Shown: positions 1 to 29,613, counted from the stretch's first letter. The stretch is DNA of 42,163 bases from Oculatellaceae cyanobacterium bins.114 (GCA_033764315.1 JANRJA010000234.1:1-42163); one strand, 5' to 3'. Notes: generated by a model from the letters alone, not told the origin. A program made the numbers and translations.

Positions 1-314
1 GTTTGAGGAAACCATCGGTTACATCACGAACCTGGAAGGAAATGCAACACAATTCCTCCAGCACATTCAGCAGCATTGGGGAATTGAAAATCGATTGCAT
101 TGGGTTAGAGACGTTTGCTTTGAGGAAGATACGGCTCGTCCGGGGGGCAATGCTCCAGTCATTTGGGCAATCCTCAATTGTTTTCTCATCTCCATTGTCC
201 GCCAGCTTGCCTTCCGCACCATTCCTCAAGGAGTGCGTGCACTCACCAACCAACTCAAACAGGTTTACACGATCCTCACCCAAGGTTTTCCTCCACCTCA
301 ATGAAACCACCCTG
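1..314 (+). mobile_element. Right end of an ISAs1-family insertion sequence (truncated by window edge)
   Basis: Frame +2 reads ...IQQHWGIENRLHWVRDVCFEED..., the ISAs1 transposase C-terminal signature; the element ends ...ACCACCCTG at 314 (CAGGG-type terminal repeat on the reverse strand). Confidence 0.85.
2..304 (+). CDS. ISAs1-family transposase, C-terminal part (5' truncated)
   Basis: Open frame from base 2 to TGA at 302-304 with the HWxIENxLHWVRDVxFxED motif. Confidence 0.88.
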   Translation, partial: FEETIGYITNLEGNATQFLQHIQQHWGIENRLHWVRDVCFEEDTARPGGNAPVIWAILNCFLISIVRQLAFRTIPQGVRALTNQLKQVYTILTQGFPPPQ

Positions 315-340
315 CTTTTCAAGGGGGATTGAGGGGGATC
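315..340. repeat. Right half of a cyanobacterial CCCCCTT..AAGGGGG-type hairpin repeat abutting the IS end
   Basis: CTTTTCAAGGGGGATTGAGGGGGATC resembles the fuller copy at ~37768-37807 (GTCCCCCTTAACAAGGGGGAT...GGGGGATC). Confidence 0.55.
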
Positions 341-385
341 GAGCCAGGTTTTGAACTCTCAACCCGAGATCTGTGTACACGGTAG

Positions 386-680
386 GAGTTCTGAGGGTGA
401 AGTTTGATGCTCGTAACTCGACCATTCAGCTTCAGAGGTCGGTGTTTCGAGTTCTGAAGGGGAAGTTTGATGCTCGCAACTCGACCGTTCAGCTTCAGAG
501 GTCGGTGTTTCGAGTTCTGAAGTGCATCTTTCGAGTTCTGAAGCTGAATGATGGCGATCGCCACTCAAACATTCAAGCTCTGAAGTGCATCTTTCGAGTT
601 CGGAGGTTGAACGATGGCGATCGCTACTCGAACGTTGAGGTTCGGAAGTCCATGTTTCAAGATTTGAGGGCGATCGCTCT
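386..680. repeat. Degenerate tandem array with 21-bp base period (63-bp higher-order unit), core TCGAGTTCTGAAG
   Basis: GAGTTCTGA-like cores at 386, 449, 512, 533, 575, 596, 638 (all offsets multiples of 21); the minus frame reads xTSELEx heptads. Confidence 0.85.
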
Positions 681-685
681 TTCAC

Positions 686-719
686 AGACCTCCGAGGTTT
701 CCCAAAACCTCGGAGGTCT
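686..719. terminator. Hairpin at the 3' end of the TIR-WD40 gene
   Basis: AGACCTCCGAGGTTT-CCCA-AAACCTCGGAGGTCT, perfect 15-bp stem touching the stop codon at 719-721. Confidence 0.7.
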
Positions 720-3700
720 CAATCTGGTGAGTTAGACAAGTAGCCGTCACAGAGGGGGCGATCGCTCTCGTGGGTAATTAAATACACCTTGATCCAATCG
801 CAGCCCATTGTCATCAGGCGATCGAAGTCCCAGACCCAGAGTTTGATGGTGCCGTCGGCACTGGCAGAGGCGATCGTCTTGCCATCGGGACTAAAACTAA
901 CGCTCCAAGTCGTTCCTTTATGCCCTTCCAGGGTGTGCAATAGCTTACCCGTCGCCACTTCCAGTAGCTTAACAGTATTGTCGTAACTGCCTGATGCGAT
1001 CGTCTTGCCATCGGGGTTGAAACTAATGCTAAGCACGGGTGATTGATGCCCTTCGAGGGTGTTTAAGAGCTTACCCGTCTCCACATTCCAGAGTTTGATA
1101 GTGTAGTCAAAACTGCCCGATGCGATGGTTTTTCCATCGGGACTAAAACTGACGCTAGCCACTTCACTCTGACGCCCTTCGAGGGTGTTTAAGAGCTTGC
1201 CTGTTGCTACGTCCCACAGTTTGATAGTGTAGTCAAAACTGCCTGAAGCAATAGTCTTGCCATCCGGGCTGAAACTGATGCTAGTCACTCTATCCTGGTG
1301 TCCTTCGAGAGTGTTTAAGAGCTTGCCCGTTGCTGCGTCCCAGAGTTTGACAGTTTGGTCAATACTACCCGATGCGATCGTCCTACCATCTGGGCTGAAA
1401 CTGATGCCAAGCACCGGTAACTGATGTCCTTCAAGAGTGTTTAAGAGCTTACCTGTCGCCACATCCCACAGCTTAATCATTTGGTCATAGCTGCCCGAAG
1501 CAAGCGTTTTGCCATCTGGACTAAAGCTAATACTAGCCACCAGAGCCTGATGTCCTTCAAGGGTGTTTAAGAGTTTACCCGTCGCTACATCCCATAACTT
1601 GATCGTTTGGTCATCACTGCCCGAAGCAAGCGTTTTGCCATCGGAACTAAAGCTGACCGCATACACCGCATTTTGATGTCCTGACAAAGTATGAAGTGGG
1701 GTGTCTGTTACGCTCCAGAGTTTGATCGTTTTGTCAGAACTGCCCGAAGTGAGCGTTTTGCCATCGGGGCTAAAGCTGATACTAAACACCGGAGCCTGAT
1801 GTCCTTCAAGGGTGTTTAAGAGTTTACCCGTCGCCACGTCCCATAGCTTAATCGTTTGGTCATAACTGCCCGAAGCGATCGTTTTGCCATCGGGGCTAAA
1901 GCGGATGCTCATCACCTGGGCCTGATGTCCTTCAAGGGTGTTTAAGAGTTTACCCGTCGCCACGTCCCATAGCTTGATAGTGTTGTCACCACTGCCAGAA
2001 GCAAGCGTTTTGCTATCGGGACTAAAGCTGATACTAAACACCAGAGCCTGATGTCCTTCGAGGGTGTTTAAGAGTTTACCCGTCGCTACGTCCCATAGCT
2101 TAATCGTTTGGTCATGACTGCCCGATGCAAGTGTTTTGCCATCGGGACTAAAGCTAATGCCCCAAACTCTGTCTTGATGTCCTTCGAGAGTATTTAATAG
2201 CTTACCTGTCGCCACGTCCCATAACTTGATGGTAGTACCATCACTGCCCGATGCAAGTGTTTTGCCATCAGGACTAAAGCTAATGCTCCGAACAATGTTT
2301 TGATGTCCTTCGAGGGTGTTTAAGAGTTTACCCGTCGCCACATCCCATAGCTCGATGGTGTTGTCACCCCTGCCCGAAGCGATGGTCTTGCCATCAGGAC
2401 TGAAACTAATGCTATTCACCGCATTATGTTGTCCTTCGAGGGTGTTTAATAGCTCACCGGTTGCCGCGTCCCACAGTTTGATGGTGTTGTCAAAACTGCC
2501 TGAGGCGATAGTCTTACCATCGGGACTAAAGCTGACACTAGCCACCACATCCTGATGGCCTTGGAGGGTGTTTTTCTCATGGATTCCAGTGATTGCTTGC
2601 TGGAGTGCTGCCATGATGCGCGGCTGTAAATCCTTCCATTCCGCGCTATCTGCCCGAAATTGGTTTTGGAGCGCTTGCCCTGACTGAAGTGCTGTTAGTA
2701 ATGCCCCAAACTTATTGCCAGATAGTGACTGTTCGCTAGAGGCTGCCGTTTGCAATCTCACGTCGGCAACTTTGATTTTCGTTTCGGCTTGCCATGCAAA
2801 CCAGCCAGCAACCCCGGCAACTAGTAAACCAATACTTCCGGCGATCGCCCCTACCATCACCAAGCGTTTCCCTTTCGCTGCCGCCGCTTTTAGAATCTGG
2901 CTGGCTTGCTGATTGGCATCTTCTACCGAACGACTGTTGGCAATGTAGCTCTGCTGCAACTCTGTGGGTTGCGGTTCTTTACCCGCACTCTGCGCCAACC
3001 ACTGTTCCGCATCAGTTAGCTCATCTTCCCGCAACAGCAGGCTTTCCTTACGTCCTTTTTCATCCCAGGCGATCGCCCTTAACAACAAACGAGTATGGGC
3101 ATGAAGATGGTCACTATCCGTATCGAGAATTCGCAGCAGTTCGGTGAAATTGGCGGAAAAGTCACCCCCTCGCTGGTTAAAGTCGAGCCATTGAACTTTT
3201 GCCAGTTCGGGATGCAGAGTGGAGGGGTCGATGGGTTGATGCAGCAGCGTCACGAAGCGTTTGTTGAGACTGGCAGCATACTCCACCTCATCGGCACAGT
3301 AGGGCGAATTAAGCGATCGCGGCGACAACACAAACAAAAACGTATCAGCACTTTCGATACCACGATGGATCTCCTGCTGAAAATCTGCCGTTCCTGCGGC
3401 GATGCTCTCCTGGTCAAACCAGGTGCGTTTGCCTTGAATTTGCAAGGCATCATTTAACCTGCGGGCAAACCCAGAATCGGCACGAGAATAGGAGATGAAC
3501 ACATCCAGCGAAACTCCTGGAGGTTGACGCAAGCTCTCGGCAATCAAGGTGTCTTGTAACGGCAAGGCTGGATAAGCAGGCATCTGTTTGGCTAGCTTCA
3601 ACCAGGCTTCGGCTTGTTGCAAGTTGTAGCCCCGCAGCAACAGCGTTGGGTTATGGTGTTGCCGCTCCCACTTTAACGCTTTCGTCAGCAATAGCTTGTG

Positions 3701-4819
3701 GGTTTCGTGATAGGCAGCATTCTGGCGCAACACCTGCAACAGCTGGCTTTCATCCGCCTGGTAATCCGATTCCTGCACATTATCCGTCAGATCAATGTAC
3801 TGCAATCCCTGGACACCGGGAGGGATCTGTTCGGGTGCGATCGCCTCCACCAACACGGGAATAATCCGCTTGTTGAAGGACAGGGCATACGCCAACTCAT
3901 GCTGGCAATGGGGCGATCGCACACTTGCAGGAGACAACAAATACACAACATTGTCGGCTTCTTCAATGCCGCGATCGATCACCGTCTGAAACTCCGCTCC
4001 AGCATGAATGTCGGTGGTGTTTGTCCAGACGGTAAAGCCTTCCCGCCGCAGGCTATTGCGAATTTGCTCAGCCGCTGCCCAATTCTCCTCGGCATAGGCA
4101 AGAAACACCTCGGTCATCAAGTTATCGGCATTCTTGCGGCTCTCAGTAACAAACTCGCAATGCAGCTCGGTGGGTAGACACGGGGGTTGAGACTCTTTGA
4201 ACCGCACCTTTAGCCACTCTTCTGCCCGGAGTCGTTCTTCGCCGATGAGTAAAAAGGGCGATCGCTTCTGATTCTGCTCCCATTCCAGGGCTTTGGCTAA
4301 CAGCCGCGTGTGTTGATTTACATAATCTTTGTGGCGATCGAAGATGGCTAACAGTCCCTGAAACGAGGCTTCAAAATCGTCAACCCCTTCTCGAAAATAG
4401 ATCCAGTTAATCTTAGAAATAGCCGGGTGGATGTTGGGAAAGATGGAATGTTGTCCCTCTGCCTGGTAAACGTCCCAGGCTTCATCTGTGCCGTTTGGAT
4501 GACGCTGCTGCCAGGTTGCTCGACTGATTTGTTCAACATGCAACAGGGGAATGATGCGTTTGTTGCGTTTGAGGGCAAGTTCAATCTCTAAGCGACAGTA
4601 GGGCGAGTTGACCGATCGGGGTGACAGGATAAACAGGAAGTTATCGGCTTTATCAATGCCGTCATTAATTTGTTTCTGGTAGTCCACTCCTAATGGAATG
4701 TCATCAAAGTCAAACCAAACTGTTAACCCATGATCGACCAGGCGACGATTTAACTGAGCCGCAAAACTTTTGCTATCTTCTCGCCCGTAAGAGATGAACG
4801 CATCCTGAAACGTCTGCAT
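719..4819 (-). CDS. Triple-TIR, single-TM, 14x WD40 protein (alternative start 4852)
   Basis: Three TIR domains (DAFISYGR..SPYCRLE; VFLAY..SPHCQHE; DVFISYSR..SPYCADE), each followed by an H.RLL..A..WE..LLRG..L..AE.WL module; hydrophobic helix LVMVGAIAGSIGLLVAGVAGWFAW; 14 GH...FSPDGK...WD repeats. Confidence 0.92.
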   Translation of the reverse strand: MQTFQDAFISYGREDSKSFAAQLNRRLVDHGLTVWFDFDDIPLGVDYQKQINDGIDKADNFLFILSPRSVNSPYCRLEIELALKRNKRIIPLLHVEQISRATWQQRHPNGTDEAWDVYQAEGQHSIFPNIHPAISKINWIYFREGVDDFEASFQGLLAIFDRHKDYVNQHTRLLAKALEWEQNQKRSPFLLIGEERLRAEEWLKVRFKESQPPCLPTELHCEFVTESRKNADNLMTEVFLAYAEENWAAAEQIRNSLRREGFTVWTNTTDIHAGAEFQTVIDRGIEEADNVVYLLSPASVRSPHCQHELAYALSFNKRIIPVLVEAIAPEQIPPGVQGLQYIDLTDNVQESDYQADESQLLQVLRQNAAYHETHKLLLTKALKWERQHHNPTLLLRGYNLQQAEAWLKLAKQMPAYPALPLQDTLIAESLRQPPGVSLDVFISYSRADSGFARRLNDALQIQGKRTWFDQESIAAGTADFQQEIHRGIESADTFLFVLSPRSLNSPYCADEVEYAASLNKRFVTLLHQPIDPSTLHPELAKVQWLDFNQRGGDFSANFTELLRILDTDSDHLHAHTRLLLRAIAWDEKGRKESLLLREDELTDAEQWLAQSAGKEPQPTELQQSYIANSRSVEDANQQASQILKAAAAKGKRLVMVGAIAGSIGLLVAGVAGWFAWQAETKIKVADVRLQTAASSEQSLSGNKFGALLTALQSGQALQNQFRADSAEWKDLQPRIMAALQQAITGIHEKNTLQGHQDVVASVSFSPDGKTIASGSFDNTIKLWDAATGELLNTLEGQHNAVNSISFSPDGKTIASGRGDNTIELWDVATGKLLNTLEGHQNIVRSISFSPDGKTLASGSDGTTIKLWDVATGKLLNTLEGHQDRVWGISFSPDGKTLASGSHDQTIKLWDVATGKLLNTLEGHQALVFSISFSPDSKTLASGSGDNTIKLWDVATGKLLNTLEGHQAQVMSIRFSPDGKTIASGSYDQTIKLWDVATGKLLNTLEGHQAPVFSISFSPDGKTLTSGSSDKTIKLWSVTDTPLHTLSGHQNAVYAVSFSSDGKTLASGSDDQTIKLWDVATGKLLNTLEGHQALVASISFSPDGKTLASGSYDQMIKLWDVATGKLLNTLEGHQLPVLGISFSPDGRTIASGSIDQTVKLWDAATGKLLNTLEGHQDRVTSISFSPDGKTIASGSFDYTIKLWDVATGKLLNTLEGRQSEVASVSFSPDGKTIASGSFDYTIKLWNVETGKLLNTLEGHQSPVLSISFNPDGKTIASGSYDNTVKLLEVATGKLLHTLEGHKGTTWSVSFSPDGKTIASASADGTIKLWVWDFDRLMTMGCDWIKVYLITHESDRPLCDGYLSNSPD
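835..2575 (-). repeat. Intragenic 126-bp WD40 tandem repeats (14 copies, high nucleotide identity)
   Basis: TGATGTCCTTC.AGGGTGTTTAAGAG.TTACC.GTCGC recurs at ~126-bp spacing. Confidence 0.9.
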
Positions 4820-4928
4820 ATTTCTACAGCTAAAATTATTGATCACCAGCATCGCTGATCATCCGATTTAACTCAACCAAAATCGGCGCAATCAGGAGAC
4901 AACAAATTTAAGATTTGGCAAAGGGGAT

Positions 4929-7055
4929 CTACTCAACGCGATCGCTCGTATCAGGTGATGAAGCCCTAACTAGATGGGTAGTGATTGTGTTAATTATTTG
5001 CAATTCCTCAGGAGTAATCACTCCATCTGCTTGAGCAATTTTTTGGCATTGAGCAATCAGAGAGACAGCAAAATCACGGCTTAACTTCTGCAAAAGCTGC
5101 TCTAGAGCAGGCAAGCCATCAGGATTAGCCTGTATAAGCATCAGGGCATCTGGACTCAGCTTTAGGTTCTTTAACTGTGGCAGCAATTGTTTCAGGGTCT
5201 TCTTAGGATTTCCAGCCAGTACCAGATGAACCAGGATTTGATCCATCACGACTTGTTGATCAAAAATCTTCTGTAAATTTTTCTCATTCTCAGATTGGGA
5301 AGCCTGTGAATTGACCTGAGAACCAGGGTTGAGTTTTGCCTCATAGAATCGACAAGCGGCATATCCCAAGCCATACAACATCGCTGCGTTGCTACTGGCA
5401 CCGATCGCTGCTCCAGCCACGGGAATATTACGGGCAACACCAAGTCCAGCCTTCAACGCCGCATTTCCTCCAAATGCCATGCCAAACACGGCTAGTACTT
5501 CTCCTTTTCGTGCAGGCTCTTTCAAATTTAAGCCATAGGCACTGGCAATCTGATACACCATTTCAGCTTGTAGTGCCATCGTTGCGAGTAAATCTACAGC
5601 AAACATAGCGGCTGCAAATCCAGGCATGACACTACTAGCAAAACCTGAACCAGCGACATAGATTGCTTTCTCAAGCATAATTCGATGGGCAATCTCACTG
5701 GCACTTTCATTGGGATACTTACGTTTCAGGTTTTTAACATGAGTCTCAGCCTTGACCACGTCAACTTTGTCAATCAAAAGCAGGAATTTATCAACCTGTA
5801 GCGTTTTGGTTAATTCCTGTAGGTGGGGGCTATTGGATAGCATGTCAATGACATAACCTACACCATCTGTTGTTTGTAGAGCCGCTCCACCGATCGCCCC
5901 GACGACACCCGTTGCAGTGCTAGCGATCGCTCCCCCCGTGGAGGTAACTGCACCACTGACTGCCCCAGTCACATTGGTAGCTGTTCCTGCGATCGCTCCT
6001 CCTGTGGAAGCAACTGCACAACCAACTGCTCCGGTTACGCTTGAAACAGTGCCCATGACAGAATCCCACAGCGATATAGATTGAGGTTGTTCTAACGTAA
6101 ATTCCTCTGTCCAAGCCGTAAAACTTGAGTTTCTCCGTCGTCCGTACAATTTTACTTGCCTTATCGAGGTTAACTTCAATTCCTTCAAAACCTTGCGAAC
6201 ATAATCGGTAGTTTGTTCTTGATCTGGAGTTTCGTGACTTTGAAGCATAACAAGCAAACAATCTCCTGTTAGCGTGATGGCAGCTACTAAACCTTTAGGT
6301 TGCAACAAATAGTTCATAGCCTTCGAGATCGCTTGAACATCGCCTTTCCGAGCTAGCTCAAGCTGACTAGTTTGAGATTGTGTTGCTACTTCAGTACTGT
6401 TTGTCAGGCTAGCTAAAGATGATTTGACTTCAGATAAGACTTTGAGTGCGTCTTTCTGTAAATCTGTTGTTTTAGAAAGATTAAACTCTTGCTGCCAGTC
6501 GAAAAACTCATCCCCTGGCTCACGGCTGCTAATTTTCAGCTGAGTGCAATCTTGAATGCCTAACTTCTTAATTTGCTCAAGTAAAGTAGAAGAAATTTTA
6601 GCTTGGTCTATAGGTTCGCTCGTTTCCAACAAAACCCTCAAACAACCATTCTTAAAGCTAACTTTGGCAAGGATTGCAGGAGAGCTCAACCACTGATTAA
6701 CAAGGGTGGCGATCGCTTCAATATCCCCTTGTTTTGCAAGCTCTGTTGTATCTAGGATTGATCCCGACTTAAGCTCAACCTCTTCCTCCCATGCTGGAAA
6801 ATCCTCACCCCGTTCGCGCCCATAAACTCTTAATTGAGTTAGGGATTCTACCCCTAGATTCCCGATAACATGATGAACTAACCCAACACACATTACTTGA
6901 TCTGGGACGTCTGCCGACTCCAAAATAATATGCAAGCAATTTGATTTCATGGATGCCTTTGCCACTATCTTGTATGCATGAAAGGCTTCACATAGCAGAT
7001 TTGTAATTGCTTTAGGATCAACTTGTTGAGTTACTTGAGATGAGTTAGGTGTCAT
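4929..7055 (-). CDS. Multidomain protein: three copies of an ~90-aa cyanobacterial domain, G/A/T-rich repeat linker, EcsC-like membrane region, C-terminal TerB-like motif
   Basis: Repeats ELA.QGD..AI..L....CL.V.L.S...PDQ....YGR......AW..EF; EcsC-like DLLATMALQAEMVYQIASAYG...IPVAGAAIGASSN; C-terminal IAQADGVITPEELQII (TerB-like ADG...E). Confidence 0.7.
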   Translation of the reverse strand: MTPNSSQVTQQVDPKAITNLLCEAFHAYKIVAKASMKSNCLHIILESADVPDQVMCVGLVHHVIGNLGVESLTQLRVYGRERGEDFPAWEEEVELKSGSILDTTELAKQGDIEAIATLVNQWLSSPAILAKVSFKNGCLRVLLETSEPIDQAKISSTLLEQIKKLGIQDCTQLKISSREPGDEFFDWQQEFNLSKTTDLQKDALKVLSEVKSSLASLTNSTEVATQSQTSQLELARKGDVQAISKAMNYLLQPKGLVAAITLTGDCLLVMLQSHETPDQEQTTDYVRKVLKELKLTSIRQVKLYGRRRNSSFTAWTEEFTLEQPQSISLWDSVMGTVSSVTGAVGCAVASTGGAIAGTATNVTGAVSGAVTSTGGAIASTATGVVGAIGGAALQTTDGVGYVIDMLSNSPHLQELTKTLQVDKFLLLIDKVDVVKAETHVKNLKRKYPNESASEIAHRIMLEKAIYVAGSGFASSVMPGFAAAMFAVDLLATMALQAEMVYQIASAYGLNLKEPARKGEVLAVFGMAFGGNAALKAGLGVARNIPVAGAAIGASSNAAMLYGLGYAACRFYEAKLNPGSQVNSQASQSENEKNLQKIFDQQVVMDQILVHLVLAGNPKKTLKQLLPQLKNLKLSPDALMLIQANPDGLPALEQLLQKLSRDFAVSLIAQCQKIAQADGVITPEELQIINTITTHLVRASSPDTSDRVE

Positions 7056-7178
7056 TTGAGGAGTGAGAAACTTTTCTTTACTAACGTACCCGCACCCTAC
7101 TTACCTCACCCATTCTTCGTACTCTCGATTGCAGATCAGTAAACCTTATAATGCTTTGATCTCTATTTTCTTTTTCTC

Positions 7179-8954
7179 TCAGGAATTCCCCAACTGGAGG
7201 GCATAGAGGTTGGCATAAACCCCTTGTTTTTCAATCAACTCGGCATGGGTGCCATGCTCTACAATTTCTCCTTGTTGCACGACGAGCACCTGATCGGCCT
7301 GAGTGACAGTGCTGAGACGGTGAGCAATGACAAAACTGGTGCGATCGCTCAACAAACGGTCGATCGCCTCCTGCACCAGAGCTTCGGTGCGGGTGTCGAT
7401 GCTGCTGGTGGCTTCATCCAAAATCAAAATGCGGGGATTCACCAGAACAGCACGGGCAATGCTCATCAACTGCCGTTGACCCTGGCTCAGATTCACTCCT
7501 CGTTCGCCAATCATGGTGGCATAGCCTTGCGGCAGTTGGGTAATGAACTCATGGACGTTGGCGATTTGGGCAGCAGACTCGATCTCTGCTTGAGTGGCTT
7601 GCGGGCGACCAAAGGCGATGTTTTCAGCCACAGTGCCCGTAAACAGAATATTGTCTTGTAGCACCAGCCCAATCTGACGCCGCAGGCTACTTTGAGTGAC
7701 GCTGCGAAGGTCAACGCCATCAATGGTGACACTGCCCTCGCTGACATCATAAAACCGCAGAATCAGGTTAATGATGGTGCTCTTTCCGGCTCCAGTAGGG
7801 CCGACAAGGGCAATCATCTGTCCTGGTTTGGCGTGCAGTGAAACGGCTTTGAGCACGGGCTGATTGGGGTTATAGCCAAAGGTGACGTTTTCAAAGCAGA
7901 CCTCGCCTTGAATGGCGGGCATGGCGATCGCCCCTTCTTCATCCTGTAACTGAGATGGCTCATCTAACAGGCGAAAGATCCGTTCTGCGCCTGCCAGAGC
8001 CGACTGAGCTTGAGTATAAAACTGGCTGAGAATTTGAATCGGGCGAAAGAATAACTGTACATACAGCAAGAACGCAGTCACCGTGCCGACGGTAGCCGCT
8101 CCCGTTATTGCCAGATAGCCACCATAGGCCAGGATTCCCGCTGTTGCTAGTGTGTTGAGAAAATCGATTGAGGGGAGAAAGGCGGCTGTAATAGCAACTG
8201 CTTGGACGTTAGCTCCTCGATTTGCAGCATTTAACTCGACAAATTCTTGAATGTTAAGGGGAACGCGATTAAAGGCTTGTGCCTCTCGCACACTGCCGAT
8301 GTCTTCTTCAATTTTGGTAGACAGGTCGCCGATCGTTTCGCGGGTGACTCGAAACCTCGCCCTCGCCCAGCGAGCAAACAACCCCGTGGTAAAGATCATC
8401 ACGGGCACAATCAAGTTGCTGAGCAAGCCCAGTTGCAAGTTGATCAACAACATGGCGATGATGATGCCCACCAAGCTAAACAGGTTACCCAACATTTGCG
8501 CCACGGTTTGACCAAAGGCTTGATTGATAACGCTGACATCATTCAGCAGACGACTCATCAGATCTCCCGCTTCGCTGCGATCGAAAAAACTGACGGGTAG
8601 ACTCTGTATCTTGATAAAGATATCCTGGCGCAACTGTGCTAGCACTCGCTGCACAATCCATCCGACCCGAATGATTTGTTGTCGAATGGCTTGAATGCCA
8701 CTGACATAAATTAGCGTCAATAAACCCATCATCAGCAGCAACCCTCGCAGATTGCCAGCACTGATGAGATGGTCGATCGACCACCCAATCAAAAACGGCC
8801 CGATCGACTGAGTCGCTGCCCCGATCGCCACCATTGACAGGGCAATCGGAATCTCTTTGCGATAGGGCTGTAGATATCTCAGCAGTCGCCGCAGCGTAGG
8901 GATTTGCTGACTGGCTTTATACTCTGGGGCAACAACGGGTCCAAACCCTCTCAT
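7179..8954 (-). CDS. ABC exporter, fused permease/ATP-binding subunit
   Basis: N-terminal TM domain; Walker A GPTGAGKS, signature LSQGQRQ, Walker B ILILDEAT, H-loop IAHRLST. Start placed at ATG of MRGFGP. Confidence 0.93.
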   Translation of the reverse strand: MRGFGPVVAPEYKASQQIPTLRRLLRYLQPYRKEIPIALSMVAIGAATQSIGPFLIGWSIDHLISAGNLRGLLLMMGLLTLIYVSGIQAIRQQIIRVGWIVQRVLAQLRQDIFIKIQSLPVSFFDRSEAGDLMSRLLNDVSVINQAFGQTVAQMLGNLFSLVGIIIAMLLINLQLGLLSNLIVPVMIFTTGLFARWARARFRVTRETIGDLSTKIEEDIGSVREAQAFNRVPLNIQEFVELNAANRGANVQAVAITAAFLPSIDFLNTLATAGILAYGGYLAITGAATVGTVTAFLLYVQLFFRPIQILSQFYTQAQSALAGAERIFRLLDEPSQLQDEEGAIAMPAIQGEVCFENVTFGYNPNQPVLKAVSLHAKPGQMIALVGPTGAGKSTIINLILRFYDVSEGSVTIDGVDLRSVTQSSLRRQIGLVLQDNILFTGTVAENIAFGRPQATQAEIESAAQIANVHEFITQLPQGYATMIGERGVNLSQGQRQLMSIARAVLVNPRILILDEATSSIDTRTEALVQEAIDRLLSDRTSFVIAHRLSTVTQADQVLVVQQGEIVEHGTHAELIEKQGVYANLYALQLGNS

Positions 8955-17232: not shown

Positions 17233-19080
17233 TCAAAACCGATTTAAGTGGCTATTAGCCATGCAGTTTGATAAATGGAATGGACTGGCAGAAAGTTGAT
17301 CGGCAGAAATAGCCAAAAGCACCGTAAAACTCGTTTGATTGTCTCGACTCTCGACTCGAATAGTGCCATCCATTTGTTCGACCAGCTTTTTGATTAAGGC
17401 AAGCCCTAACCCTGTTCCACCATGCTTCCAGGGGTCGTTGTTGGGAATGCGATAGAACTTATCAAAGATCCGAGATAACTCTTCAGTGGCAATTTCTACC
17501 CCTGTATTGGCAACAGTGATCTGCAACGCTGGGGTGAAATGAGTCTCGTGAGAGGGTTGAGTCATGCTGGCTGAGATAGCAATAGTCCCTCCTGGTGGGG
17601 TGTACTTGCAGGCGTTGCTGAGGAGTTCGGTCACGATGCGATTGATGGCGAGTAGGTCAAGCGTGAGAGACGGCAAACCAGGGGCAAGATTGACTTGAAG
17701 GATTTGTTGTTGATTGTGAGTCCGAATTTCAAATGGCTCAATCAGGTGAGCGAGTAAATCGTAAAGGTTAATGGTGGTTGTCTGGCTGTTATATGTTCCT
17801 GCTTCAGCGTGTTGCAGATGTAACAGATCTTCGACTAGAGCCAGTTCTCGATCGCACTCCTCTCTCAATACTTCTAGATATTGAACCACTTTATTGTTTT
17901 GGTTAGAAGACTTAGAAATTTCCTCAACCAAGGTGCGCCCCTGATTAGTCACTGTTGTGAGGAGTTTGATCACCATTTTCATGCTGGCAATGGGCGTTCG
18001 CAGTTCATGAGAAATCGTGCTGAGAAAATCGTCTTTGAGTTGATTCAGTCGCTCTAATGCTTTGACCTGGGCTTGAGCCTCTTCATAGAGTCGAGCTTGT
18101 CGTAGGGCGATCGCACACTGGTTGGTGACTTGTTGGACTAAGTGAATTTCGAGTTCGCTGAACGTAGCATCGGAGCCTTTAAATAACCACAAGTCACCCA
18201 AAATTCCTACTTGATTGACCTGTTCATCAAAAATTGGACAGGAAAGAATAGCGGACTGACCACAAAGCGGGGTGAACTGAGTTTGGCAGAAAGCAGAATA
18301 AGACTGTTGATCTTGGAGTTGGTGATAGATTTTGGGGACGTCTGGCAGACACAACAGGTGACTTTGAACAGCATCTCCCCCTGATGCGACATATTGATAA
18401 TGTTTGAAAGACGATGGGTGCTCAGAATTGTAGAGGACGGCATGACAACAAGGCACTTCTAATGCCTTGGCGAGTTCTTCTACTGCATTTTGCAGCACCT
18501 GATGCGGATCGAGTGAGTCTCGAACTTTGTCAGAGATGCATTTGAGGGTTGTTTCAAATTTGAGAGATTGGTGTAACTCCAGTGTCCGGGCTTGTACCCG
18601 TCGTTCTAAATCAGCGTTGAGATGCCGAATTTCAGCCTCTGCTTTTTTGCGCTCTTGAATTTCTTGTTCAAGTTGATGTTGGTGTTGTTGAATCAGAAGC
18701 TGATTTCTAACCCTTGCCAATACTTCCAACTCTTGAAAGGGTTTTGTGATGTAATCTTGTCCACCGATCTCAAAGGCTCGAACTTTATCCGTAATTTGGT
18801 CAAGTGCACTAATAAAAATAATTGGAATAGAGCGAGTGGCTTCTGATTCTTTTAATATTTTGCAGACTTCGTAGCCATTGATCTCTGGCATATTGATGTC
18901 GAGCAAAATTAAATCGGGTGGGTCACGGTAAACCGCCTGCAATGCCATTTTGCCGCTCAAAGATTTGCGAACTGTGTAATTATGAGATTCTAAAATTTTG
19001 GCAAGTAAGCGCAAGTTATCAGGGGTGTCATCGACCACTAGAATATTGGTTTCAACAGCGGGTTTGAGTAGGTTATTCAT
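17233..19080 (-). CDS. Hybrid histidine kinase REC-GAF-HisKA-HATPase
   Basis: ILVVDD..LILLDINMP..YITKPF; GAF without bilin CH motif; SHELRTP; ELLSNACKY; GGTGLGL. Confidence 0.92.
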   Translation of the reverse strand: MNNLLKPAVETNILVVDDTPDNLRLLAKILESHNYTVRKSLSGKMALQAVYRDPPDLILLDINMPEINGYEVCKILKESEATRSIPIIFISALDQITDKVRAFEIGGQDYITKPFQELEVLARVRNQLLIQQHQHQLEQEIQERKKAEAEIRHLNADLERRVQARTLELHQSLKFETTLKCISDKVRDSLDPHQVLQNAVEELAKALEVPCCHAVLYNSEHPSSFKHYQYVASGGDAVQSHLLCLPDVPKIYHQLQDQQSYSAFCQTQFTPLCGQSAILSCPIFDEQVNQVGILGDLWLFKGSDATFSELEIHLVQQVTNQCAIALRQARLYEEAQAQVKALERLNQLKDDFLSTISHELRTPIASMKMVIKLLTTVTNQGRTLVEEISKSSNQNNKVVQYLEVLREECDRELALVEDLLHLQHAEAGTYNSQTTTINLYDLLAHLIEPFEIRTHNQQQILQVNLAPGLPSLTLDLLAINRIVTELLSNACKYTPPGGTIAISASMTQPSHETHFTPALQITVANTGVEIATEELSRIFDKFYRIPNNDPWKHGGTGLGLALIKKLVEQMDGTIRVESRDNQTSFTVLLAISADQLSASPFHLSNCMANSHLNRF

Positions 19081-19087
19081 ATTTCCC

Positions 19088-22000
19088 TTAAACCTCGGTG
19101 AGAGTCGCGATCGCTTCTAGTTGAAAGTGTTCAACCAGAGAGAGTAGGTTTTGAATTAACCTTTGCTCGTGTGGAGGAATTTGGGTGATCAGGTGGCGGA
19201 TCTTGCTATCGTTGAGATCGAGGGCTGCCTCGTGCACTTGAGCGATCCACTGAGCGGGCATCACGTGCAGGTCTTGCAAGGTTAACGGCTGTTGTAGTGA
19301 CGTTGCAGACGGTTGCACCGCTTGGTTAGCATAACGGTACTGCACCCCTAGCTGGTGAGCGATCGCCTCAAACAGATCCTTTTCAGTAAAGGGTTTTGTA
19401 AGATAGTCATCACACCCTGCCTCTAAACTGACAATGCGATCGGTCTCAAAGGCATAGGCAGTCAAGGCAATGATGGAGGTGGGCGAGTGGGACTCATCAT
19501 CCCCTCTCCCGCGCTCCTGTTCTCGAATGTGGCGAGTGACCTCATAGCCATCCATCAGGGGCATCTGAATATCCATCAAGATCAAATGGGGATGCCAGGT
19601 TTGCCATTGGGCGATCGCTTCCAGGCCCGTCTCAGCCGTTCTGGTCTCAAACCCGATTGGCTCTAGCAGGGTCACGAGCAGTTGCCGATTTTCAGGGGAG
19701 TCTTCAGCAACCAAAATGCGATAGGTGGGTTGCCCTGACTCCAGCCCGATCACGAGACGAACCGCTTCGGGTTCCAACAGATCCATCGCTTGGGGTTGAT
19801 GTAAAACGACTTGATAGGTAAAGGTTGAGCCGTGACCAACTGTGCTTTGAACGGTAATGTCACCTCCCATCAATCGGGCAAACTGGCGGCTAATCGATAG
19901 ACCCAATCCAGCACCTGTGACATGGCGACCTTGCTCAGTTTGCGTAAAGGCTTCAAACACCGACTCCCAATCGTGGCGATCGATCCCACATCCTGTGTCT
20001 TCGACCACAAAGGAGAACCTGTCTGCCTGACAGGAGCTTTGAGCCGTGGGATAGCAACTACAACCGGGTTTGGTTGGGTCAGTGACTGCCGCACTGACCC
20101 GCACAGCAACGCTGCCCTGGGTCGTAAACTTGATCGCATTGCTGATCAAATTAATGAGAATTTGTCGTACTTTGGCTTCGTCAGCACACACATACTGAGG
20201 CACGTTCAGATCTGCAATAAAAGACAGGGTCAGCCCTTTTTGAGCCGCCTTGAGCGCAAACAGGTCTTGCAGCGATCGCAACAGTCGGTGCAGATTAAAA
20301 TGCCGCTCTGTCAACACGAGTCGTCCTGCCTCAATTCTAGATATCTCTAGCACGTCATTGATCAGGGTCAGTAAATGTTCGCCACTGCGATTAATAATGC
20401 CAAGCGGTTCCTGAAACTCAATTGGGATCTGAGGATTGCGGTTCATCAACTGGCTAAACCCAATAATGGCATTGAGCGGAGTTCGCAGTTCGTGGCTCAT
20501 TTTGGCGAGAAACTGGCTCTTAGCCCGATTGGCGATCGCGGCTTGTTCGGCAACTTGTTCTAATGCAATTTGAGAAAACTCCAGCAGAGCCAGCATTAAG
20601 GTATTCCGCATCATTCGGGCCGCTTCAATTTCTGCCGATTGCCAGGGCAGCGACGTTTCTTGCACAGTTTCCTTCCAGATTGCAAAGGACTTGCGGGGAC
20701 ACAGATGTAGTTTTCCCAGGTCATCAACGGTCATAGCATCTTGAGGATTGCCCGCCCAATTTACCGTTTGAAATTGCTCTGGTCGAAACCAGATCAGGTG
20801 ATAAGACTTTTGATGCAACACAATAGATATCGCCAAGATGCCACTCGCAATCTGTTTAAAGGCTCTGGCAGCGGGATAAAGTCGGGCAAGGCAATCGGTC
20901 AAATAGATCTCAGGTTGATTGAGTTGGGGCAACCAGGCCAAGAGAGACTGAACCTCTGGCAAAGATGGAGTTTGACCGATCAGCGTCATAGTTTGATCAA
21001 GCGCGATCGCCACCCCATCGGCATGAACCAGACTGAGCAACTCAGTCGCGTGGCGAGTTAATAGGGGTTGAATGAAATTTGGCTCTTGTAACAGAGCTTG
21101 TTGAAGTTGATCTCGAATGGTTTTGACCTGAGTTCGGTAGCTGTCTAATTCTCGATCTTGTTGATGGATCAGCTCGATAGAGGCAAATTGCCCTAAAAAT
21201 GCACAGGTTTGGCGCGTTTCATAGTCTACCTGTTTGGGGCTGTAGTGATGGCAGGCAATCAGACCCCACAACTGTCGATCTGCTATTAATGAAATGGTCA
21301 GCGTCCCGGCAACCCCCATATTCTGCAAGTACTCAATGTGATAGGGTGACACGCCGCGCAAGATGCAGTCACTCAGGTCTAAGGGTTGGTCAATCGCACA
21401 ATCCTGCGGGGCAATGAGCTGAGCGGGACTGTGATTGACATCTGGAATTTGACGCACCCAACTGCGAAGAAATAATTTGCGGGCAGGGGCAGGAATATCA
21501 ATTGAGGGAAAATGGAGTCCCAGATAACTCTCTAGATCAGGTTCTTTTGCTTCAGCAATGACAACCCCATGATCGTCTCTCTCAAAGCGATAGACCATAA
21601 CGCGATCGAACCCTGTAATCGCTCTCACTTGCTGGGTCAGTGTCTGAGCTAAATCGGCTAAACTGCTTGCATTTCGGAGGCTCAAAATCGTAGCATGCAG
21701 CCGATGATAAAACTGAATAGAGTGAATTTTCTCGGTTAAACGCTGAGGTTCCAGTACCAAAATCAGGGCGTTAGTGGTTCGGTGTAGGCTGCCTCTAAAG
21801 GTTGTTGTCTGTGTTTTTAACTCAAATGGATTGCACAATTCCAGGTTGTCTTGACGGAGACAATTTGCAATCTGTTTAACCTGAGTGCGAGAAAACAGTT
21901 TCTGCAAGGGTTTCCCTAAGACATCGGCTGGGGGAACACCCCAAAATTGCGCTACATTCTCACTCATTTGCAAGATTTTGAGGTGAGGTTCTTGCAACAC

Positions 22001-22171
22001 CAATAGCACTCCATAGGGCTGGATATAACCAGGAGCATACACTGACTCTTCGCTACAGTCTTCCAATGTGGCTAGCGTTGAAAGGTCGAATTCAGAAGGT
22101 TTAGTGGTGGCGATCGAAGGTTCCATGAGTGCGATGGAGTAAGAGGACGTGGGTTGAAGAACTGTATTCAA
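19088..22171 (-). CDS. Bacteriophytochrome-type hybrid histidine kinase (PAS-GAF-PHY-HK-REC)
   Basis: [50 protein letters not shown] tongue [18 protein letters not shown]-terminal REC. Confidence 0.92.
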
Positions 22172-22177
22172 TAAAGC

Positions 22178-27241
<5,064 letters not shown>

Positions 27242-27255
27242 ACCTATCCCGCCTC

Positions 27256-27645
27256 CTAAGCAGGTAACCGTTGTAAATTCTGACTGATGAAGGTTTGTGA
27301 TGCTTCGGGGGCGATGGCCTGCCATTGAGGGTTGATGGCTTTTTTGTCTTGCCAGACAAAGGTGACCCGACTGAAATCAGTTGGGTTGAGCGTGCGATCG
27401 GCAGACGAGTATTGCTCAATCCAAACTAGGTTGTCAGGATCAAGCTGAAACTCTTGAACAACCTGGTTAACGAGCGTTTCAACAATGAAGGGGTTAAACC
27501 AACCGATCTCAAATGCCATATCGGTAATGATCACCACTTGCTGCTCTGCTTGTGGTTGAAAAACACAAAGATGACATTGCAGGTGCCAAACGTTAGATCC
27601 TTGACCAGAGATTTGACAGTGATAGATTTGGTCGATGGTCTTCAT
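27256..27645 (-). CDS. Hypothetical protein (~129 aa)
   Basis: ORF in operon position, 14 bp from next start; globular-looking QEFQLDPDNLVWIEQY..FSRVTFVW..NPQW. Confidence 0.75.
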   Translation of the reverse strand: MKTIDQIYHCQISGQGSNVWHLQCHLCVFQPQAEQQVVIITDMAFEIGWFNPFIVETLVNQVVQEFQLDPDNLVWIEQYSSADRTLNPTDFSRVTFVWQDKKAINPQWQAIAPEASQTFISQNLQRLPA

Positions 27646-27717
27646 GATGGTTTCTGGACAAAGACAGGAGCAGGGGGGCAATGAAAGTCAAAAAATATGG
27701 CATCACTCGCACAGGTT

Positions 27718-27906
27718 TTAGACCGTAACCAGCGATCGCCTGAAGCTCAACGGCACAAACTGCTGTCTTAGGGCAGACGAAACCAGGTTTAAGCTGGGTT
27801 GTTCAAATAAGGGCATTTCTTGCCAGCAACTCCGGCAAAACCAGTAGACTTGATGGTGCCGAACATGTTGCAGCATTTGATTAGAACAACAGGGGCAATT
27901 TGTCAT
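27718..27906 (-). CDS. Small Zn-ribbon-like protein (62 aa)
   Basis: MTNCPCCS..ML.HVR...YWFCRSCWQEMP (CxCC...CxxC); GAGG upstream of ATG 27906. Confidence 0.8.
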   Translation of the reverse strand: MTNCPCCSNQMLQHVRHHQVYWFCRSCWQEMPLFEQPSLNLVSSALRQQFVPLSFRRSLVTV

Positions 27907-28013
27907 AAAAACCTCGTTTCTTAAAAAGACAGAGTTGATCAAGACAGAGTTGAAGACAGACAAACCCTGAACCTGCCGTAAAAAGCTTGGCAGGCTGAAT
28001 GACCAACAGTTCG

Positions 28014-28048
28014 ACATTAATCAGAGAAAATGGAGATTTGGTAAAGAT
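28014..28048 (-). promoter_or_regulatory. Putative promoter: ATCTTTACCAAATC-N15-TAATGT
   Basis: 14-bp motif at 28035-28048 identical to 28990-29003, with a TAN3T hexamer at the same spacing. Confidence 0.55.
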
Positions 28049-28209
28049 GAACTGGACTGTTAAGGAACTGTCTTAAATTGAAATATTTGTCAAAAAAGTA
28101 ACTACTTTAAAGAAATGTATCAATGTCGCAACACTATCAAGTTGCTCTTAAGCATTACAAAAATGGCTTTTATTTAAAATTTAAGCGTCTCAATCTCATC
28201 GTCTCAATC

Positions 28210-28635
28210 TCATGACGAGTGGCTATTGTCATCGATCCACTGAGGCTCTTCATCCCAGTTGAGCAAGGTGGCAATTTGTTGAGCGAGCCGGATTGGATCC
28301 GATAAATCATCAATCACCCCTGTTACCTGAAACTGTTGCAATAGCTCGATATTGAGCCATTTCATGCCAGCCGCCAATAACACAATTGGAATCTCTTGAG
28401 TCACAGGTTGGTCGCGCAAGTTTTTCAGGAAAGTAAAAAAATTCATGCCTGAAGTTGAGAGATCAAACACGATCGCATCGGGTTGATCTTGGGCAGCATA
28501 CTCTAACCCCTCTAAAGGAGAACTGGCATTTAAGACCTGCCATCCTCCCAGGTGGCTCAGACAGGCTTGCATCACTTCCTGACCATTGGGTTCACTATTA
28601 ATTAATAAAATTGTTTTGGTGATCATTGCCATCAC
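28210..28635 (-). CDS. Atypical (pseudo) receiver-domain protein
   Basis: REC fold similar to 29203-29613 (V.ACL..L.GW..L.A.S..EGL) but acidic pocket is INSE and the conserved Lys-Pro is replaced. Confidence 0.85.
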   Translation of the reverse strand: MMAMITKTILLINSEPNGQEVMQACLSHLGGWQVLNASSPLEGLEYAAQDQPDAIVFDLSTSGMNFFTFLKNLRDQPVTQEIPIVLLAAGMKWLNIELLQQFQVTGVIDDLSDPIRLAQQIATLLNWDEEPQWIDDNSHSS

Positions 28636-28968
28636 CTATAAATTCCTCATAATTATGATTTGATTATGATGTGTCACTCAATGCAGCTATTCTCAATCTC
28701 AGAGCGGGTCTATTAATAGAAGGGCTTGATCTCCCTAGACTTCGCTTTAAATAGGGGACTTCAGCCTTTTGTTTGGGCTTCCTCCCGTTGACAAGGAGGA
28801 CAGGTGGGAGCAAGTAATTGTAAACGAAGGTTTACGATTGACTTGATCCAGTGGCTCTTATGCAATTACTTGAATCAATTACTTGAATCATGACTCTTAA
28901 TATGGATGGGCTGAGATCACGGATGAGATGAGACGCTCTCACACCCGATTTGGAAAGGCTGTATCCGT

Positions 28969-29003
28969 AGGCTAAACAGTAAAGATGTGGATTTGGTAAA
29001 GAT
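28969..29003 (-). promoter_or_regulatory. Putative promoter: ATCTTTACCAAATC-N15-TAGCCT
   Basis: Second exact copy of the motif; an extra ATCTTTAC half-site lies at 28979-28986. Confidence 0.55.
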
Positions 29004-29047
29004 TGCAATTTTTTAGGTGTAAATTTTTTGTGAATATAAAATTCTGA

Positions 29048-29145
29048 TACCCATTTGAATTGGCTTCGCTGCACATGATTCCGTAAGGGCGTTTCGCGAA
29101 ACGCCCCTACCCAGTGATCTGTCACAATCAAAAATTAAATTGGTA
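29048..29145. mobile_element. MITE-like element (TACC.ATT ends, TGA duplication) carrying a GTAG-type REP hairpin
   Basis: TGA-TACCCATTTGAATT...AATTAAATTGGTA-TGA; internal GTAAGGGCGTTTCGCGAAACGCCCCTAC. Confidence 0.75.
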
Positions 29146-29202
29146 TGAGATGCTGCCAGGGTGGGTTTAGTGTGGCACTGAAAAACTTAAATGGGCTGCA
29201 AT

Positions 29203-29613
29203 TCACAACAGATCACCTTTCATATCCGCAGGCGACTCAGCCCAACCCAAGATCTCGGCGATCTCGGCGATTAACGTTGTGGGTTGAATGGGTTTAGAAA
29301 TGATGCCAGTGACTCCCATCTGGGCAAATTTGGCGCGATCGCTGGGCAAGACCTTAGCCGTTAGCAAAATCACTGGAATCGTTTGAGTCACAGCATTCGC
29401 CTGAAGCCGTTCATAAACGGCGACCCCATCCATTCCGGGCATCGACACATCCAACAAAATGGCATTCACCTGTTCGGTTTGCAAAATCTGCAAGCCCTCT
29501 TCTCCAGAGGCAGCCGCGAGGGTTTCCCAGCCTGCCAGGTCTTCTAAACAAGCCTGTACCAGTTCCCGGAGCCGTTCCTCATCATCTACTACAAGAATTT
29601 TTCTGTTTGTCAT
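29203..29613 (-). CDS. Single-domain response regulator (CheY/RcaF-like)
   Basis: ILVVDDE, ILLDVSMP, ILLTAK, ISKP; ATGA overlap with upstream kinase. Confidence 0.93.
   Translation of the reverse strand: MTNRKILVVDDEERLRELVQACLEDLAGWETLAAASGEEGLQILQTEQVNAILLDVSMPGMDGVAVYERLQANAVTQTIPVILLTAKVLPSDRAKFAQMGVTGIISKPIQPTTLIAEIAEILGWAESPADMKGDLL

Follow-up and report, generated by a model that had tools for sequence, protein, structure and literature searches.

What kind of molecule is encoded by a cyanobacterial gene that joins three TIR domains, one predicted transmembrane (TM) helix and a long run of WD40 repeats in a single chain? The gene in question lies on the minus strand of a 42,163-nucleotide contig from Oculatellaceae cyanobacterium bins.114 (GCA_033764315.1 JANRJA010000234.1:1-42163), the whole of which is referred to here as the window, with all positions counted from its first letter. 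An earlier account prepared from the DNA alone—below, the sequence-only reading—had likened the protein to a Toll-like receptor (TLR) and proposed a transmembrane immune-type receptor that manages without a nucleoside triphosphatase (NTPase). The explanation favoured here, by a modest balance of probability, is that of an outside-in TIR signalling receptor, i.e. a type II single-pass protein with a cytoplasmic array of three TIRs and an outer WD40 sensor.

Domain content of the three-TIR protein

The gene is the sole long open reading frame (ORF) of its region and covers, together with the stop codon, the positions 719..4852 (-), corresponding to 1377 amino acid residues (aa), on which the residue numbers given here are based. 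Since both the alignment of 60 orthologues (alignment A2) and the 1366-aa database record P0002 begin at the second ATG (M12), located at position 4819, this is probably the true start, yielding a 1366-aa product; it is also the end coordinate that the sequence-only reading had given for the gene.

The N-terminal part consists of three modules in tandem, each of them a TIR domain followed by a helical sub-module: module 1 (aa 12-242; 4127..4819 (-)), with the TIR at aa 19-106, the motif SPYCRLE containing Glu89 and an insertion of 27 aa; module 2 (aa 244-445; 3518..4123 (-)), with the TIR at aa 249-368 and the motif SPHCQHE containing Glu319; and module 3 (aa 447-642; 2927..3514 (-)), with the TIR at aa 451-573 and the motif SPYCADE containing Glu522. 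All three TIRs belong to the Pfam family TIR_2 (PF13676), recognized with a whole-protein E-value of 7e-85 and 282 bits against a cut-off of 28, the individual pieces reaching 93-102 bits when scored separately. It is the TIR plus the following ~75-90 residues that is repeated, the three copies being alignable over their full length at 36-45% identity, with H170, L173, L174, A177, W180, L190, L191, A199, E200, W202 and L203 as the invariant helical positions. The Glu-bearing motifs (CRLE, CQHE and CADE in the sequence-only reading) and the recurrence of the same helical module after each TIR are thus both borne out. The 27-residue insertion (aa 110-136; window ~4400-4500) is present only in TIR1, where the positions of its Trp, Arg, Gly and His residues show little or no variation across the 60 orthologues.

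The AlphaFold2 (AF2) model of aa 12-760, based on a 60-sequence alignment (pLDDT 85.6, pTM 0.75), exhibits three alpha/beta TIR folds, helices after each of them and long helices flanking the hydrophobic segment. When this model was compared with the PDB by Foldseek, all 27 of the 27 matches at E≤0.001 were TIR-domain proteins, including the SPARTA TIR-APAZ (8qlp_E; 5.5e-5), Hydra TRR-2, SARM1, TLR1, MyD88, MAL and TIR-STING, the TM-score (target) to solved TIRs reaching 0.89, as befits the flavodoxin-like TIR fold. Among solved structures, the best match by sequence is the filament-forming CRISPR-associated TIR protein Cat1 (9mud_K; E=3.4e-6), whose SDWCWDELE (motif WCWDE) aligns with SPYCADEVE of TIR3, followed by SARM1 with E about 1e-4.

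Each of the three TIRs carries the conserved Glu in a motif of the [W/Y]CxxE type known from enzymatic TIRs (Glu89, Glu319 and Glu522). Of the 60 orthologues, all have Glu at this place in TIR1 and TIR3, and at least 90% have it in TIR2; across the family, Glu occupies the putative catalytic column in 454/500 modules, and in 179/180 of those from three-module proteins. The non-Glu exceptions concentrate in the last module of five-module proteins, Gln being found there in 15/47. We take it as established that the Glu of this motif is the catalytic residue of TIR NADases and cyclases, and the TIRs of the present protein may accordingly be predicted to be enzymes of the NADase/cyclase type.

The helical module, modelled alone from 74 sequences, forms a small helical bundle running into a long pre-TM helix (pLDDT 92). 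No Pfam family matches it and no counterpart was found by Foldseek in the PDB (best E=4.1), the ESM Atlas offering weak leads, one of them a cluster with nSTAND1 on 13% of its members (score 0.76). A profile of the module retrieves 9634 clusters (at 50% identity) at E≤1e-3, a number that falls to 5108 when the threshold is E≤1e-10 and to 341 when it is E≤1e-30; the 150 clusters listed of the 9634 contain 2-7 module copies each, and every one of these that was scanned with the hidden Markov model (HMM) of the module also had TIR+helical modules. The prediction of a two-copy complex of aa 447-760 scored 0.02 against a mark of 0.42, which gives no answer either way.

The C-terminal part is formed by fourteen WD40 repeats (aa 757-1343; 824..2584 (-)), recognized by Pfam in 14 stretches (WD40, E=1e-188). 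The units measure 42 aa, one of them 41, and Tandem Repeats Finder reports the coding DNA as a tandem array of period 126, the mean pairwise DNA identity among the 14 repeats being 72.6%. Within the protein, the repeats are near-identical except for positions 12, 13, 15, 31 and 33, each occupied by 6-9 different residues and together flanking the start of the GH..V strand and the conserved Asp. These are probably the top-face hotspots of WD40 propellers, and presumably the same repeat positions as those under diversifying selection in the WD40 proteins of the fungal NOD-like receptor (NLR) type. The five variable positions probably make up the ligand-binding top face of two propellers; with repeats present in a closing multiple, the fourteen of them would form two seven-bladed propellers. 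The chain ends with a tail (722..823 (-)) bearing a two-Cys motif, GCxW...YL...C, common to 29/63 WD40-type relatives.

Predicted transmembrane helix, family and the place of the NTPase

A Kyte-Doolittle scan in windows of 19 aa revealed one stretch above 1.4 in the entire 1377 aa, with window starts at 661-670 and a peak of 2.31 at 664. No other part of the protein is strongly hydrophobic. The stretch represents the uncharged span aa 664-689 (2786..2863 (-)), predicted to be a single TM helix and placed, as in TLRs, between sensor and TIR. It is preceded by a basic juxtamembrane stretch (aa 643-663; 2864..2926 (-)), in which the long pre-TM helix ends with KAAAAKGKR, and followed by a helical linker (aa 690-756; 2585..2785 (-)). 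The count of one TM helix and 14 WD40 repeats made in the sequence-only reading therefore stands.

A search for this architecture and its gene neighbourhoods, as the earlier account had suggested, returned a family. With the N-terminal 760 aa as query, 8000 candidates were scored and at least 1355 of these proteins matched at E≤1e-3; the organism-named ones are nearly all from cyanobacteria, with Candidatus Parabeggiatoa in addition, the closest being those of Scytolyngbya sp. HA4215-MV1 (80% identity) and Oscillatoria sp. FACHB-1407 (78%). In a collection of species-representative genomes, tblastn confirmed 539 stretches, the best 80 of which gave 79 loci; all 79 are cyanobacterial, mostly filamentous, with some genomes contributing at least 5 loci, a number that is a lower bound. 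The databases name these proteins just 'TIR domain-containing protein' or 'WD40 repeat protein'. Individual members contain 2, 3, 4, 5, 6, 7 or 8 TIR+helical modules, and the last module is directly followed by a TM helix in 238 of the 251 members having at least 60 C-terminal residues (113/120 in the first set).

What varies is the part beyond the helix. A census of 258 proteins pooled from the top lists—exclusive of the window protein, its database duplicate and P0261—assigned the C terminus to the classes WD40-like (133/258), CHASE2 (49/258), FGE-sulfatase (10/258), dCache (3/258), short (11/258) and other (52/258). Pfam, applied to 34 of the 52 'other' proteins, found mostly diverged WD40, several proteins being without any C-terminal match; the class also includes dCache_1 (P0164, P0200), dCache_2/Cache_3-Cache_2 (P0137), CHASE2 (P0248) and DM9 (P0209), as well as P0162 and P0242, in which WD40 is succeeded by about 12 TM helices. 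The latter two, together with P0192, P0208 and P0235, share a layout of three TIRs and the TM helix, ~400 residues and then 10-13 hydrophobic helices without a Pfam match, the ~400-residue stretch being a WD40 propeller in P0162 and P0242. The most economical reading of the constant TIR array, the constant TM helix and the interchangeable C-terminal domain is that of a modular receptor family, in which an outer sensor would be joined by one helix to an inner TIR array making or consuming nucleotides derived from NAD+. Members also occur as neighbours: three paralogous genes with three TIRs and WD40 are arranged head to tail in Microcoleus contigs (L031:1-13525 and L054:77-14621) and pairs are found in tandem at the loci L017, L026, L047 and L074, resembling the local amplification seen in receptor gene clusters.

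It is this domain exchange that bears on topology. CHASE2 and Cache are canonical extracytoplasmic sensors, and NAD+ is located in the cytoplasm. The CHASE2 forms possess one to five further hydrophobic helices near the C terminus and the dCache forms one just after the Cache domain; because this is the standard helix arrangement of extracytoplasmic sensors, the TIR array of these paralogues would reside in the cytoplasm, and because the array, the juxtamembrane helix and the TM helix of the WD40 forms are homologous to those of the CHASE2 and Cache forms, the WD40 forms would also be N-in, C-out. The charges at the flanks of the helix point the same way. In the CHASE2 class (n=40), K+R averages 4.85 on the N side vs 2.27 on the C side and net charge +4.42 vs -0.85, with more K+R on the N side in 40 proteins and on the C side in 0; in the WD40 class (n=60), the corresponding values are 4.03 vs 3.05 and +3.1 vs +0.78, the N side being richer in 40 and the C side in 6. 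The mean uncharged span of 25 residues suffices for one pass but not for a hairpin. Taken together, the features of the sequence suggest a type II, N-in C-out single-pass protein with the TIRs inside and the sensor outside, facing the periplasm—thought to be continuous along the filament in filamentous cyanobacteria—or possibly the thylakoid lumen. The cytoplasmic TIRs and the propellers across the membrane, as the sequence-only reading had placed them, agree with these flank charges, with the position of the helix after the last module and with the CHASE2/dCache swaps.

A hidden NTPase, which would make the protein an ordinary STAND protein, was considered and rejected by motif regex, Pfam, AF2 secondary structure and Foldseek against the PDB, in accordance with the sequence-only reading. 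The Walker A pattern G....GK[ST] does not occur in the 1377 aa, all GK[ST] strings being the 'DGKT' of an SPDGKT-type motif inside the WD repeats, and Pfam recognized no NTPase family at E≤10 in aa 1-760 or four sub-pieces of it, giving only TIR-related families and noise. There is also no room for one, as a module has only about 200-230 residues; accordingly, the P-loop NTPase (Walker A/B) by which STAND/NLR-like proteins are defined is missing from the model, which consists of TIR folds and helices only.

The helical module with its TM helix is nevertheless found after an NTPase elsewhere. The neighbour protein L019_2 contains nSTAND1 (aa 63-476), the helical module (aa 450-516), a TM window starting at aa 529 and pentapeptide repeats, its helical module being detected with E=5.9e-6 by an HMM built solely from TIR-family modules; a word-based search with the nSTAND1-type piece of this locus matched only the locus's own protein. 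A further sister architecture, AAA_35-TM-WD40 (L071_0, TM window starting at aa 465), represents a neighbour family in 6 loci. Since the same helical and TM cassette follows nSTAND1 in L019_2, the TIR array sits where the NTPase sits elsewhere, a position compatible with the suggestion of the sequence-only reading that TIRs in cis could replace NTPase-driven oligomerisation.

Gene neighbourhoods and competing explanations

In 19/79 relatives' loci, the TIR gene has a SLATT, SLOG or patatin gene at a distance of at most four genes; most of these are its immediate neighbours and share its strand. The 19 loci come from about 12 named genera, and their TIR genes are of the WD40 type in 18/22 cases. 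The assignments are backed by Pfam for 15/16 clustered DUF4231/SLATT genes (NCBIfam SLATT_1 106 bits vs a cut-off of 41), 10/10 LSDAT_prok SLOG genes and 4/4 patatin genes, one of the last having been tested with NCBIfam CBASS_lipase and scoring 128 bits, i.e. below the cut-off of 200. Three layouts recur: the gene for three TIRs and WD40 followed by SLATT, an ORF of 108/111 aa and an ORF of 447 aa (L032, L040, L042, L044, L050); SLOG followed by patatin and the gene for three TIRs and WD40 (L041, L053, L062, L063); and a TIR gene or tandem array followed by SLOG (L028, L031, L047). The conserved 108/111-aa and 447-aa ORFs of the first layout (e.g. L032:15823-17533) are without a Pfam or NCBIfam match in the five loci. 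As for the SLATT proteins, their C-terminal domains are often GH19, phage lysozyme or Peptidase_C39_2 (L006:1877-4081, L050:7160-8638, L038:17216-18112 and others), and the layout of two TM helices plus lysozyme in such fusions resembles a holin-endolysin pair.

In a preprint, a TIR protein with SLATT is described as the experimentally validated type VII Thoeris, with canonical cyclic ADP-ribose as the signal, and several TIR proteins with a SLOG effector as type III Thoeris (Yirmiya et al., bioRxiv 10.64898/2025.12.03.692087). By analogy, the layout of the relatives' 19 loci is Thoeris-like. The proposal of an immune-type receptor made in the sequence-only reading thus finds support only through the relatives; in the window itself, there is no such partner.

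In an outside-in receptor of this kind, a ligand would bind to the variable WD40 propellers and alter the packing or clustering of the receptors, an activation step that we purely infer; the cytoplasmic TIRs could thereby assemble active TIR-TIR sites, at which NAD+ would be cleaved to give an ADP-ribose-derived signal. In the relatives, the signal may be read by the SLOG/SLATT or SLOG/patatin proteins encoded next door; in the case of the window gene, a reader encoded at another place would be required, unless the output is the loss of NAD+ itself. The most inclusive form of this idea is a tentative one that, taken as a whole, seems somewhat doubtful: that the family comprises innate immune receptors of filamentous cyanobacteria working from outside in, with diversifying periplasmic sensors (WD40, Cache, CHASE2, FGE-sulfatase), one helix, 2-8 cytoplasmic TIR enzymes and an NAD+-derived messenger that fires SLATT-lysozyme pores or CapV-like lipases.

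It should be pointed out that several observations weigh against such a receptor. With regard to partners, no SLATT, SLOG, Macro or patatin gene is present in the 42-kb window, and SLATT/SLOG/patatin neighbours are absent also from the closest relatives examined (L001, L002, L003, L005). The window shares no synteny with any of the 79 relatives' loci, none of its genes matching them beyond generic ABC, amidase and receiver domains, and the NCBIfam model Thoeris_type3_ThcB4 gave 110 bits, below its cut-off of 220. With regard to the membrane, the TM helix is missing in 6/133 WD40-type members; in two of the three inspected, P0003 and P0048, it is cleanly deleted with the flanking linker kept, from which it follows that wholly cytoplasmic TIR-WD40 versions can exist. 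The confidence of AF2 is low at the TM segment (pLDDT <50, model residues 654-672), and the C flank of the WD40 class is mildly basic too, with more K+R on this side in 6/60. Finally, the ligands of Cache and CHASE2 domains are usually small molecules, as compatible with environmental signalling as with immunity.

Alternatively, the TIR array may itself be the terminal effector, draining NAD+ and stopping or killing the cell like SARM1, with no messenger or partner involved. This possibility, which appears to be on the unlikely side, is consistent with the absence of an effector gene from the window and from beside the closest relatives examined, with the 60/79 relatives' loci that lack a SLATT, SLOG or patatin neighbour, with the high local NADase capacity to be expected of three to eight catalytic-type TIRs per chain, and with the SARM1 TIR being among the best matches by both fold and sequence. 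It leaves unexplained, however, why SLOG, SLATT and patatin genes are so recurrently and tightly linked to the TIR gene on the same strand—in 19/79 loci and many genera—if there is no diffusible product.

The same build could also belong to an outside-in receptor that is not immune, transmitting environmental or cell-cell cues through NAD+-derived signals to physiology or filament development, with programmed cell death, differentiation and NAD metabolism as possible outputs. This option, too, appears to be on the unlikely side: the partners in the relatives (SLATT with lysozyme, GH19 or C39, and CapV-like patatin) are cell-killing effector types of CBASS and Thoeris, and hypervariable WD40 positions, paralogues in tandem and the presence of several of them in one genome are reminiscent of immune receptors that diversify. 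In its favour are the swaps to Cache and CHASE2, both typical small-molecule sensors, the neighbourhood of housekeeping and two-component genes rather than a defence island in the window, and the occurrence of the family in mostly filamentous, multicellular lineages.

The helix, too, can be read differently, namely as a tether or as a segment that is not inserted at all, leaving both halves of the protein in the cytoplasm with WD40 sensing intracellular, e.g. phage, proteins in an NLR-like manner. In favour of such a reading, there are variants without the TM helix and of otherwise identical design (P0003, P0047 and P0048; 6/133 in the wider set), and two sister proteins agree with it, the nSTAND1 neighbour, in which the helical and TM cassette joins a cytoplasmic NTPase to repeats, and the AAA_35-TM-WD40 protein nearby. 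Yet one uncharged span with a mean length of 25 residues must have its two ends on opposite sides of the membrane, the positive-inside bias indicates N-in, and paralogues hold, at the WD40 position, CHASE2 or Cache domains of canonical periplasmic topology, so a wholly cytoplasmic protein is considered unlikely. One of the TM-less members, P0048, shares its genome with the TM-bearing P0024.

It is highly improbable, finally, that the TIRs are non-enzymatic scaffolds recruiting TIR or adaptor proteins as in the TLR-MyD88 signalling of animals: the TIRs of TLRs, MyD88 and MAL are indeed among the fold matches, but Glu is kept in 454/500 modules, as would not be expected of pure scaffolds, and no TIR-only adaptor gene recurs among the neighbours in the 79 loci.

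Known systems and the surroundings of the gene

With respect to Thoeris of the types VII and III, the outside-in receptor proposed here has in common the TIR_2-type domains with the conserved Glu and, in 19/79 relatives' loci, the proximity to SLATT, SLOG or patatin genes. It differs in that its three TIRs are united in a single chain, where each is accompanied by an additional helical module, and in that a TM helix ties them to a large WD40, Cache or CHASE2 domain whose predicted location is outside the cytoplasm; moreover, the operon with a signal-reading effector that characterizes Thoeris is absent from the window.

The likeness to animal TLRs, asserted in the sequence-only reading, holds in so far as a repeat-built ectodomain, one TM helix and cytoplasmic TIRs are predicted, and the TIRs of TLR1, TLR2-type, TLR6, TLR10 and Hydra TRR-2 are structural matches. 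It fails with orientation: whereas a TLR is a type I protein with one C-terminal cytoplasmic TIR, the present protein has three N-terminal TIRs, and its flank charges indicate N-in, i.e. type II. WD40 propellers take the place of leucine-rich repeats (LRRs), no LRR family being among the best 25 of 73 Pfam matches, and the conserved NADase Glu suggests an enzyme rather than a scaffold. The protein is no member of the TLR family and would work like a TLR turned round; there is no evidence that the whole architecture shares descent with that of TLRs.

Bacterial STAND/NLR-like proteins, i.e. nSTAND1 or AAA_35 with repeats, live in the same organisms and use the same repetitive type of WD40 or pentapeptide sensor, in L019_2 even with the same helical module and TM helix after nSTAND1; unlike them, the present protein has the TIR array in place of a P-loop NTPase. 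The TIRs of SARM1, Cat1 and SPARTA are the nearest solved ones by sequence and fold and share the Glu-bearing motif. These NADases are activated by release of the ARM domain, by filaments driven by cyclic tetra-adenylate and by Argonaute tetramers, respectively, while the only regulatory parts of the protein studied here are the helical modules, the TM helix and the outer sensor. The caspase-TM-CHASE2 proteins of the EACC2/TRADD-N systems, according to Kaur et al. (2021; PMC8195603), likewise combine an N-terminal cytoplasmic effector enzyme with variable C-terminal domains, some of them, such as CHASE2, extracellular with TM helices. They differ from the present family by a caspase instead of a TIR array, the latter with its repeated TIR+helical unit and WD40 as the commonest partner. 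PMC7159879 describes the use of TIRs as effectors in the conflict systems of multicellular bacteria.

A description of tandem TIR-TM-WD40/CHASE2/Cache proteins was not found in a literature search to which subscription journals and bioRxiv supplements were external, among the latter Table S1 of 10.64898/2025.12.03.692087, where TIR clusters of this kind may be listed; nor was one found in passages of PMC10907252, PMC13142454, PMC5587647 and PMC9153377. The architecture thus seems undescribed in print, the related design principles being already known.

To our knowledge, the known bacterial TIR systems—Thoeris, the TIR-type effectors of CBASS and Pycsar, and SPARTA—respond to events inside the cell. 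Should the protein prove to be an outside-in TIR receptor, the coupling of TIR enzymes to outside sensors would open a further level of input for bacterial immunity or signalling. It would also provide a simple, NTPase-free model of TIR switching across a membrane, a question central to the biology of TLRs, SARM1 and plant TIRs. In the more inclusive, somewhat doubtful form of a family of innate immune receptors, it would be the first Thoeris-type pathway set off by a cue from outside the cytoplasm, and a functional, independently built counterpart of TLR signalling in which cis-linked TIRs replace the NLR-like NTPase switch. The operons pointed to are those combining the gene for three TIRs and WD40 with SLATT-lysozyme, and SLOG with patatin and three TIRs.

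Concerning the surroundings of the gene, it stands in the window among genes unrelated to it, which encode an ABC exporter, DnaG and a cell-wall amidase and, in an extended series, two-component and phytochrome proteins. The dense sensory run at 17233-35347 (-) encodes a hybrid His kinase, a phytochrome-type kinase (PAS_2-GAF-PHY), a 1715-aa CHASE-PAS kinase, three single receivers, a 1279-aa GAF/PAS kinase and a triple-receiver OmpR/Hpt protein. An ORF of 708 aa (4929-7055 (-)) lies 76 bp upstream of the TIR gene on the same strand; inspection by eye suggests that it begins with three repeats, each of about 100 aa, and has a hydrophobic central part rich in Gly and Ala. It has only weak Pfam matches to EcsC (3.1e-5), TerB and DUF697 and none in NCBIfam, and adjoins the TIR gene in none of the 79 related loci. 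A scan for promoters and terminators over 200-7300 found fewer sites than in shuffled sequences.

On the downstream side, a C-terminal fragment of an ISAs1-family transposase is located at 2-304 (+), its frame leaving the window edge; it scored 51.7 bits with NCBIfam NF033564, against a cut-off of 70, over the model positions 254-313 of 314. Between this fragment and the TIR gene, just 3' of the stop codon of the latter, there are two adjoining tandem arrays of a 63-bp unit (386-658), one with 2.2 copies at 94% identity and the other with 2.4 copies at 82%, the second array including GCGATCGC; both arrays give rise to spurious ORFs on both strands.

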